In this document: piece after piece, positions 38,304-39,839 of the stretch
How the letters are laid out: every line of letters begins with the position of its first letter
Numbering within the stretch: the stretch's first letter is position 1
Notes under the pieces: model-generated
The model's database searches: none
Seen by the model: the letters and a program-made list of their open reading frames with translations, nothing else
Told to the model about the DNA's origin: nothing
Origin: Kofleriaceae bacterium
Lineage (GTDB): Bacteria; Myxococcota_A; Polyangia; Haliangiales; Haliangiaceae
Direction: 5' to 3'
DNA length: 60,012 nucleotides
NCBI GenBank assembly: GCA_046597055.1
Contig: JBKJLC010000229.1
Coordinates: 1 to 60,012, forward strand
Translations under genes and position numbers: made by a program

Positions 38304-39563
38304 CTATACCACGGGGAGGCGCCGGCGATCCGGTCGCGGCGAGTTGCCGAAAGCAACGTCACGCTTACGGAAATCGATCACACGTGGGCACTCGGGGTCG
38401 GGCGCGGTGGCGTCGCCCGCGTGTCCGGAAACGACCTTGCAACCGCCCCGACACAACGCGTGGTACGGGCAGCACGCACATGCCTCGCGCGCGTCCTGCC
38501 AGGCGCGAAACCCGCCAAACGCACTCGGCGTGGCCCAGTACTGACCGAGCTCGGTGACCTTGGGACGGTGCCCGGTCGCCGGATCCGGCGGCGGCGGCGG
38601 CGCGAAGCTGCACGCGGTGATCGCGCCCGACGGCTTCGCGCCGATCAAGAAGTCGCCGCCGGTGCAGCCGTAGACGGCCAGCTTGGCGAGCAGGTCGGGC
38701 CCGGGGTCGTGGTGAACGAGCATCGGCGTGTACGAGCAGTCGACCTTGACCCGGACCCGATGGCGGCGGGCCGCGGCCAGCACGTGGGGCAGGAAGGCGC
38801 GGTGCTGCGCATCGGTGCAGCGCAGCCGCCCGTAGGTGACGGCCCCCCGTCCCGACGGCTTGAAGCGCAGCAGCTCGACCTCCGACAGGCGCCGGCGCCG
38901 GGCGTACGCGAAGAGCTGCGGCAGCTCGTCGAAGTTCGCGCGGGTGACCACCACGTTGATGCCGATCTCGCGCTTGATCGAGCGGAGCGCGCGCACCGCG
39001 GCGTCGGCGCGGGCGAACCCGTCGAAGCCGCGCACCGCGGCGTAGGTCGGACCCAGCCCGTCGATCGAGACGTTGATCTGACCGAACCGCTCCGCGATCG
39101 GGAGCAGGCGGTCGAGGCCGGCCAGGCCGCTGGTGGTCAGGTTCGGAATGATGCCGAGCCCGCGGGCGTGGTCGGCCAGCTGGCCCAGCCACGGCAGGAT
39201 CGCGCTCTCGCCCCCGCCGAGCGCGACGTGGAACACGCCGACCCGCGCCAGCTCGTCGAGGGCGCGCTTCCAGGCGTCGAGGCCGAGCTCGTCGGAGCCG
39301 CCGCCTGGGCTGGCGCCGGTGTAGCAGCCCACGCAGCCGGCGGCGCACTGGTTGGTCAGCTGGAGGTGGGCCTCGAGCGGCGCTGACAGCGGCGCCGATC
39401 CCAGCGCGCCGTCGGCGGCCGGATCGCGCCAGGTCGGGTCGCCGGCGGCCGGCGCCAGCCCCAGCGCGCGGGCGCGGGCGCGATCGACGAACACCAGCGC
39501 GCGGGGCCGGGCCAGCTGCACGATGGCCCCGAACGCCTCGAGCCGCGCGGCGCGCTCGCGCAT
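38304..39563 (-). CDS. Radical SAM/SPASM-domain protein
   Basis: LTNQCAAGCVGCY (CxxxCxxC), GGGE, NLTTSG, VSIDG; SPASM GCTGG...ITACSF...CACCPYHALCRGGC...PDPEC. Confidence 0.93.
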   Translation of the reverse strand: MRERAARLEAFGAIVQLARPRALVFVDRARARALGLAPAAGDPTWRDPAADGALGSAPLSAPLEAHLQLTNQCAAGCVGCYTGASPGGGSDELGLDAWKRALDELARVGVFHVALGGGESAILPWLGQLADHARGLGIIPNLTTSGLAGLDRLLPIAERFGQINVSIDGLGPTYAAVRGFDGFARADAAVRALRSIKREIGINVVVTRANFDELPQLFAYARRRRLSEVELLRFKPSGRGAVTYGRLRCTDAQHRAFLPHVLAAARRHRVRVKVDCSYTPMLVHHDPGPDLLAKLAVYGCTGGDFLIGAKPSGAITACSFAPPPPPDPATGHRPKVTELGQYWATPSAFGGFRAWQDAREACACCPYHALCRGGCKVVSGHAGDATAPDPECPRVIDFRKRDVAFGNSPRPDRRRLPVV

Positions 39564-39763
39564 CAGCCGTCCCGGAGATCCGGCCGGGCCGCGGGGGGCG
39601 GCGCGGCGAGCGCGGGCCGGCGCCAGCGCAGGAGCGCGGCCAGCACCGGCGTCACCATCGACACCGCCGCGGCGCCGGCGAGGAGGAAGGTCACGTCGAC
39701 GCCGAGGCTCGACGAGTTGGGGTTCATGCCCCACTTCACGGCGAGGATCTTTCCGCGGCTCAC
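39563..39763 (-). CDS. 66-aa putative substrate/partner peptide with NPNSSS motif and TM helix
   Basis: MSRGKILAVKWGMNPNSSSLGVDVTFLLAGAAAVSMVTPVLAALLRWRR...; TGATG overlap with the rSAM start; TATAGT -10 box 6 nt before GTG. Confidence 0.8.
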   Translation of the reverse strand: MSRGKILAVKWGMNPNSSSLGVDVTFLLAGAAAVSMVTPVLAALLRWRRPALAAPPPAARPDLRDG

Positions 39764-39839
39764 GCGGCGACTATAGCCGGTCTGTCACGACGAGGTGGGG
39801 GGACCGACCCACGGCCGGGCCCGCGGGCCGCCGCCGCGG

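Follow-up and report, generated by a model that had tools for sequence, protein, structure and literature searches.

Radical SAM enzymes of the SPASM type that have clear cognate substrates have repeatedly yielded new chemistry. One of them, anSME, takes Cys as well as Ser substrates, recognizes sulfatases with a (C/S)xPxR motif, and modifies its substrates before export. In AtsB and anSME, a Ser within a protein, not a RiPP, is oxidized via abstraction of a C-beta hydrogen, as described in PMC10114670. CrpC of Methanococcus voltae is presented in PMC13692751 as an RRE/SPASM radical SAM enzyme modifying CrpA, which is encoded in its own cluster. The window analyzed here, a stretch of 60,012 nucleotides from a Kofleriaceae bacterium (assembly GCA_046597055.1, contig JBKJLC010000229.1), codes for a radical SAM/SPASM enzyme and, directly upstream, a 66-aa membrane peptide. 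The pair is probably an undescribed protein-modification system, conserved and unnamed, with a chemistry predicted from sequence; no description of it was found in the open-access literature.

The peptide gene and its conserved tag

The preliminary description of this DNA had reported a 66-aa open reading frame with a TATAGT box shortly before its GTG and a stop codon overlapping the enzyme start, and these coordinates check out (Table 1); the peptide TGA and the enzyme ATG share one base (TGATG). Since the codons of the tag differ synonymously among relatives under fixed tag residues, and since 1189 relatives of the peptide were found, the 66-codon reading frame is real. The transmembrane helix suggested earlier is likewise borne out by a 19-residue hydrophobic segment with a Kyte-Doolittle peak of 2.15. 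Queried alone and as 81 diverse members, the peptide has no Pfam, NCBIfam (June 2026) or PHROG family. A cultured host, Haliangium ochraceum, encodes it.

Table 1. Features of the locus, with positions in the window.
Feature	Position	Strand	Basis or remark
ppsR/DUF299 kinase-pyrophosphorylase	37486..38295	-	Not a core component; synteny kept at order level
Radical SAM/SPASM enzyme (419 aa) from an unnamed clade; MftC is its top-scoring named model	38304..39563	-	Profile matches, model, fold search
SPASM region, eight conserved Cys (C276-C392)	38388..38738	-	TIGR04085, 27.6 vs cut-off 27
Glu230, barrel strand 228-233	38874..38876	-	Alignment and AlphaFold2 model
CxxxCxxC (C73, C77, C80), radical SAM cluster	39324..39347	-	Sequence conservation
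Truncated RRE-like element: strands 6-9, 12-17, 22-27 and helix 28-33	39465..39548	-	AlphaFold2 model
66-aa tagged membrane peptide, candidate substrate	39563..39763	-	GTG start; ORF 39763->39563
Hydrophobic helix, residues ~22-44, then basic cluster RWRR	39632..39700	-	Hydropathy; fusion-model helix 28-47
Tag loop, residues 14-21 (NPNSSSLG)	39701..39724	-	Ser17 codon = 39715-39713
Basic/hydrophobic recognition strand, residues 5-12, last = invariant Gly12	39728..39751	-	Conservation; fusion-model strand (predicted)
TATAGT -10-type box	39770..39775	-	6 nt 5' of the peptide GTG

A TAnnnT sequence stands 5-8 nt before an in-frame ATG or GTG in 79 of 92 distinct relative loci, compared with 18 of 2200 random ATG/GTG codons, a control that is not exactly matched as several starts were tried per relative locus. 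Given the closeness of this box to the start in most relative loci, the peptide transcript is likely leaderless. A sigma-70 scan of the region returned no promoter-like site. The neighbouring ppsR had been credited with a -10 box of its own, making the pair a two-gene unit. That box, 9 nt before the ppsR ATG, is TATAGA, without the last T, and overlaps the last codon and stop of the enzyme gene; with the box this weak and the sigma-70 scan empty, a two-gene boundary on the ppsR side lacks support. The pair is also more than a two-gene unit, a TPR/4-TM protein encoded elsewhere in this genome (contig C183) being a third conserved member.

Conservation of the peptide is concentrated in its N-terminal part. 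Residues 4-27 are nearly invariant among close relatives. Across 43 diverse peptides, G12, N16, S18, and G21 are the sole residues that never change, and the helix and tail have diverged. No residue other than Ser or Cys occurs at position 17, giving the consensus N-[S/C]-S-S-x-G, and a 19-residue hydrophobic segment follows the tag in all 43 (Kyte-Doolittle maxima 1.4-2.5). Trp11 and residue 13 are free to vary in the family, which argues against aromatic crosslinks. Some genomes hold more than one copy: G071, G107, G169, G077, and G113 have two tag peptides each, the first three of them also two enzymes, and locus L233 has two peptides less than 5 kb apart. In another genome, the enzyme-adjacent peptide is split over two frames (G018:C42:1147-1297), with intact and partial copies on another contig (G018:C107).

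The enzyme

The enzyme is a Pfam Radical_SAM protein. The CxxxCxxC motif and full SPASM Cys set attributed to it in the preliminary description are both present, with C73, C77, and C80 accompanied by eight conserved Cys (276, 300, 318, 362, 365, 371, 375, and 392) that are kept in at least 97% of 143 distinct enzymes, the cluster content being predicted from the sequence. In the AlphaFold2 model (pLDDT 92), three strands and one helix precede the barrel. A complete RRE has three strands and three helices, and the N-terminus had earlier been likened to the RREs of the MftB/PqqD type. The likeness holds for the first three strands, with a weak match to MftB (38% over 26 columns, E 0.002, probability 14%) and none to PqqD; a full RRE is not supported, as a single helix follows the three strands in both AlphaFold2 models. 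The top folds returned by Foldseek for the enzyme model were SuiB (TM 0.71), PqqE, SkfB, and anSME; the closest folds of the predicted structure are thus those of peptide or protein modifiers.

Co-occurrence of peptide and enzyme

The peptide and the enzyme are tightly paired across genomes. With peptide matches of E >0.04 set aside, the enzyme orthologue and the peptide are both present in the same 45 of 61 related genomes and both absent from the same 16. In a sample of 401 genomes of the phylum, where counts are given without a p-value as the profiles were partly built from the same genomes and kin are not independent, 74 encode the enzyme clade and 72 the peptide, all 72 falling within the 74, and 327 encode neither. 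In both enzyme-only genomes, the enzyme gene is truncated by the start of its contig. The co-occurrence check proposed in the preliminary description, now run, thus found the enzyme in every genome of the sample with a peptide.

Linkage is close in most cases. The 72 pairs comprise 59 that are adjacent, three within 5 kb, and ten that are unlinked yet co-retained. The peptide lies directly upstream of the enzyme in 29 of 30 loci, and the enzyme directly follows the peptide in 41 of the 63 metagenome loci (80 collected) with enough sequence. At 80 close GTDB peptide loci, the enzyme was found in 62, within 300 nt in 49 of these; for the other 18 it is absent from the fetched stretch, several of them being short contigs. 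Together with 26 fusions and the same tag on phage relatives (see below), strict co-occurrence and adjacency bear out the earlier pairing of the two genes. In Kofleriaceae (L038-L117), an insertion hotspot lies among a sigma-54 regulator, the peptide, and the enzyme; its inserts, an ECF sigma/anti-sigma-like pair and others (labels assigned by eye), part the peptide from the enzyme by 1-6 kb or more.

Neighbours and a third partner

The TPR/4-TM membrane protein is a third partner of the pair; it has TPR repeats and what looks like a signal peptide, with some four helices near its C-terminus. It is encoded ahead of the peptide in 55 of the 66 metagenome loci, some of which went into building its HMM, and its tail profile matches 49 of the 72 system genomes and, weakly, 2 of the 329 others. 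Forms with an extra N-terminal region occur at L168:7177-8991, L169, and L232:2291-4141, with a weak PAP FN3-like match in L168, and the PAP-like proteins beside these extended partners have metal motifs that look altered by eye. Exported PAP-like metallophosphoesterases were counted, at these loci alone, in 18 of 60 phylum loci and 17 of 36 long metagenome loci; in one lineage, TonB receptors, ExbBD, and HupE/UreJ stand alongside them.

Downstream of the enzyme, genes for two small membrane proteins are frequent. Many Cys-type loci (L186-L216, L303) have there a 148-aa membrane protein with HGH...HP, YPxYR, and FExKEH motifs, a relative of which occurs in this genome (G000:C157:71495-72148) and for which the Atlas gave only weak cytochrome-like fold leads; many also have a membrane protein of ~100 aa with a [YF]xWR motif. 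Across 40 distant genome loci and 80 metagenome loci, no gene for a protease, an exporter or a tailoring enzyme is found repeatedly, and no sulfatase was found among the neighbours scanned.

The ppsR gene is found in 55 of the 80 close loci; none was seen in the 40 distant loci (L165-L204). Between it and a convergent response-regulator gene one 10-base unit is repeated head to tail three times (37378-37406; ttctaagggc, the last copy imperfect). The convergent gene (36084-37265, + strand) codes for an unusual domain chain of receiver, PilZ, weak STAS-like, and weak Zn-ribbon parts, and the receiver/PilZ protein lies on the opposite strand after ppsR in eight close loci. On the other side, 6 kb upstream, is a TlpA-like redoxin (~45849-46388, - strand) that clusters with redoxins directly after the tag peptide in L167-L170; some metagenome loci, L226 and L231-L233 among them, have similar redoxins after the tag peptide.

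Covariation and natural fusions

Residue 17 of the tag is matched by a residue of the enzyme. Across the 143 distinct enzymes, all 101 that are paired with Ser17 have Glu230 and all 42 that are paired with Cys17 have Gln or His there; position 230 is the only perfectly matching column, with Ser277/Ala tracking residue 17 almost as well. A tree built from 96 of the 143 enzyme rows groups the Cys-type enzymes in a single clade. Since the Ser-to-Cys switch is a single evolutionary event, the Glu230 match counts as one observation and is only a lead. The switch also bears on the earlier argument that a peptide without Cys excludes sacti- and ranthipeptide chemistry. There is no core Cys in the window peptide, but 42 of the 143 distinct enzymes go with Cys at position 17, and as Ser17 is replaced by Cys in one clade the argument fails family-wide.

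Of 151 loci in which the enzyme is full-length, 26 encode tag, helix, and enzyme in one reading frame. These fusions are all of the Cys type, scattered over several places in the Cys clade, and in one of them (L315) an internal Met is kept. The AlphaFold2 model of the L210 fusion (pLDDT 91, pTM 0.91) predicts residues 3-8 as a strand (pLDDT 88 for the stretch 1-10) and 28-47 as a helix; the tag loop between them is of low confidence (pLDDT 58). As the six-residue strand finds no equal-length partner inside the peptide, the enzyme sheet is its probable partner, and the model suggests that the basic strand of the tag likely pairs with the three-stranded N-terminal sheet of the enzyme. A single-pass helix in the fusions would place tag and enzyme on opposite membrane faces; unless the helix fails to cross the bilayer, modification must then happen in trans or before insertion.

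Phage relatives with the same tag

Patterns built from the enzyme only retrieved 14 viral loci, two of them duplicates, and 13 of the 14 have the same tag in the same register (12 recognized by pattern, one by eye). The tag starts the enzyme's own N-terminal domain or, once, an open reading frame before the enzyme. The phage and cellular tag profiles align in register (HHalign, 20 columns, E 4e-6), and the enzyme profiles align over 243 columns (probability 99.8). A second scan yielded 60 distinct full-length phage proteins, 56 of them tagged and none with the SPASM Cys set; it is not independent of the first result as the tag itself was used as one search pattern. By comparison, the tag was found in none of 24 control loci around MftC, PqqE, and other radical SAM/SPASM enzymes.

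The phage tag heads a soluble domain of ~150 residues without a membrane helix. Relatives of this domain number 1467 (74-266 aa, including fragments); of the best 120, 100 match the tag pattern, and the members in L326-L418 have invariant NSSSxHS, W, DHQS, and GGNDN motifs. Sequence comparison with Pfam and PDB gave no match to the domain, and no solved relative was found. The fusions match phrog_1802, 7293, and 16999 weakly, and gp146c of Salmonella phage Arash (WGL32597.1; L340), annotated as a 'methyltransferase', is actually a tag-radical SAM fusion. Where the cellular enzymes have SPASM cysteines, the phage enzymes have 0-4 Cys; they serve Ser-type tags without a Glu at the Glu230 position and retain an active-site Lys/Gly/Asp/Ser pattern.

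The enzyme family is apart from all 27 other cellular and plasmid radical SAM enzymes compared. In a tree of 32 of 68 rows, the family and the phage enzymes split from 14 other radical SAM/SPASM enzymes with a support of 98/100; the phage branch is long, and an AU test does not reject a family joined with MftC-like enzymes (p 0.19).

A predicted modification of the tag

The tag is quite probably the substrate of the enzyme, and the evidence leans slightly towards residue 17 as the modification site. For the reaction, we tentatively favour oxidation of Ser17 in the N-S-S-S loop to formylglycine, an aldehyde. Such an anSME-like oxidation fits best given the Ser/Cys interchange, the two-cluster SPASM domain, and the Glu/Gln switch. 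Under this scenario, strand 5-12 of the peptide would pair with enzyme strands 6-27, the truncated RRE-like sheet, and a 5'-deoxyadenosyl radical would abstract hydrogen from C-beta of residue 17, be it Ser or Cys; Glu230 would help to deprotonate the Ser hydroxyl, and the two auxiliary clusters would accept the electron. The modified peptide would then stay in the inner membrane, as no protease or exporter follows; retention had been proposed in the preliminary description from the absence of adjacent genes of this kind and is plausible, none being conserved. There its probable partners in a complex would be the TPR/4-TM protein and, depending on the lineage, another two small membrane proteins, with the exported purple-acid-phosphatase-like enzymes nearby. 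Against formylglycine, the Asp base of anSME is missing, and the phage enzymes have neither Glu230 nor auxiliary Cys; without SPASM cysteines they are a poor fit to an oxidation that needs auxiliary clusters.

Two other reactions on the tag have to be weighed. Residue 17 may give its oxygen or sulfur to a carbon radical on a neighbouring residue (Asn16 or Asn14), so that the loop is stapled by an ether (Ser) or a thioether (Cys). We consider this unlikely, although the Ser/Cys exchange adjoins an invariant Asn and the best fold match is the crosslinker SuiB. Crosslinks through the Ser oxygen are rare, and CteB/SkfB-type thioether enzymes have an open iron site whereas the eight conserved SPASM Cys leave none here; the phage relatives, moreover, are without auxiliary clusters. 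There are nevertheless precedents for such stapling, in that alkyl radicals of SPASM enzymes usually combine with sulfur or oxygen and TqqB makes an aliphatic ether, according to PMC10114670, and CrpC makes thioethers in a protein, according to PMC13692751.

Alternatively, the reaction on the tag could be redox-neutral: radical-driven dehydration or backbone scission at Asn16-Ser17, leaving dehydroalanine or an N-terminal carbonyl of the pyruvoyl kind, epimerisation, or a glycyl radical at Gly12. The phage enzymes are what speaks for it, as they keep the tag and the Lys/Gly/Asp/Ser pattern without SPASM cysteines, and the phage NSSSxHS, DHQS, and GGNDN motifs resemble a catalytic pocket around the tag. 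Ser and Cys also exchange at pyruvoyl sites (PrdA and GrdE versus PanD and HdcA); the known pyruvoyl enzymes, however, self-cleave without a radical enzyme. As the cellular family appears from its sequences to keep both auxiliary clusters strictly, and with no solved relative of the phage domain found, a redox-neutral reaction seems improbable.

It is also conceivable that the peptide is a membrane anchor or regulator and that the enzyme acts on a lipid, a small molecule, the TPR/4-TM protein or the exported phosphatases. The helix fused to the enzyme looks like a membrane anchor, PAP-like phosphoesterases are at hand (18/60 phylum and 17/36 long metagenome loci), and the topology problem of the fusions would vanish. 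However, an anchor has no need for an invariant polar loop whose Ser/Cys tracks a residue facing the active site, the same tag stands on soluble phage domains without a helix, and the pair is co-kept even when unlinked (10/72), making this role for the peptide quite doubtful. A classical RiPP, in which the modified core would be excised to give a free small product or cofactor, as for PQQ or mycofactocin, is very improbable even with MftC and PqqE as the closest named enzymes and a truncated RRE, as no protease, exporter or tailoring enzyme recurs in the 40 distant and 80 metagenome loci, the core runs straight into a conserved membrane helix, and 26 loci have the enzyme fused after it.

Returning to the tag as substrate, membrane peptides and phage domains may be two settings of one reaction. 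A possible, though rather speculative, account is that this enzyme lineage recognizes a portable N-terminal tag of ~17 residues, a strand plus NSS, and converts its Ser or Cys to a reactive carbonyl cofactor in any protein that bears the tag: in these bacteria a membrane micro-protein acting within an envelope complex, and in large phages a soluble catalytic domain, there in cis and without SPASM clusters. If true, the tag would be a genetically encoded, site-specific protein handle, and comparison with the phage form would reveal what the auxiliary clusters add. The system is found in 72 of 401 sampled phylum genomes without a Pfam, NCBIfam (June 2026) or PHROG family model, and it is open to direct testing, since a Ser-type pair takes two genes and a Cys-type fusion one, and both a host and a phage form are in culture.

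Comparison with known systems

The pair works like an RRE-radical SAM-SPASM maturase and falls outside MftC, anSME, AhbC/D, NirJ, and the classical RiPP cluster by the criteria of each. As in the mycofactocin and PQQ systems, a radical SAM/SPASM enzyme lies next to a small peptide gene, and MftC and PqqE are the best HMM and BLAST matches. The enzyme is not MftC itself, scoring 115.3 bits with TIGR03962 against a cut-off of 265 at ~28-30% identity. Here, the recognition strands are built into the enzyme and there is no separate MftB, while the peptide matches neither MftA nor PqqA, has a membrane helix after the tag, and is not followed by tailoring genes. Clustering with the haem enzymes AhbC/AhbD and NirJ, named in the preliminary description as an outcome that would count against a peptide-modifying role, was not observed, the scores of 50-72 bits lying far under the cut-offs of 500-650 and the enzyme standing apart from them in the tree.

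To SuiB (streptide, from SuiA; PDB 5V1T), SkfB, and CteB, the enzyme is linked by the best fold match (TM 0.71, SuiB), by the N-terminal sheet and, with SuiB, presumably by the spacing of the eight SPASM Cys. It differs from them in its RRE of three strands and one helix, in a tag without an invariant aromatic residue, in the lack of a protease or exporter, and in the existence of fusions. The features of an RRE-dependent RiPP maturase are likewise incomplete, since a complete RRE is absent and no protease or exporter recurs in the 40 distant and 80 metagenome loci. A PEP-CTERM-like sorting signal, which consists of motif, helix, and basic cluster and ends a secreted passenger protein, was also considered. 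The peptide shows these three parts in order, but its start codon lies just 13 residues ahead of the motif, and the best CTERM-type match has an E of 0.13.

With anSME and AtsB (PDB 4K36-4K39), the enzyme shares the two-cluster SPASM fold, having Cys enough for two predicted, fully ligated clusters. No anSME model is among its best 25 NCBIfam matches, the (C/S)xPxR motif is absent from the tag, and invariant Ser319 occupies the place after the third auxiliary Cys where anSME has its Asp base. CrpA, as described in PMC13692751, is cysteine-rich with ranthionine crosslinks, whereas here the candidate site is one Ser/Cys in the short tag of a membrane micro-protein. The phage tag-radical SAM fusions, such as Arash gp146c, have the same tag register and a related enzyme core, and differ in bearing the tag on a soluble domain of ~150 residues, without the membrane helix and the SPASM cysteines. 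A strand-Gly-x3-Asn-[Ser/Cys]-Ser tag together with an enzyme of the clade is found in both the membrane-peptide and the phage forms.
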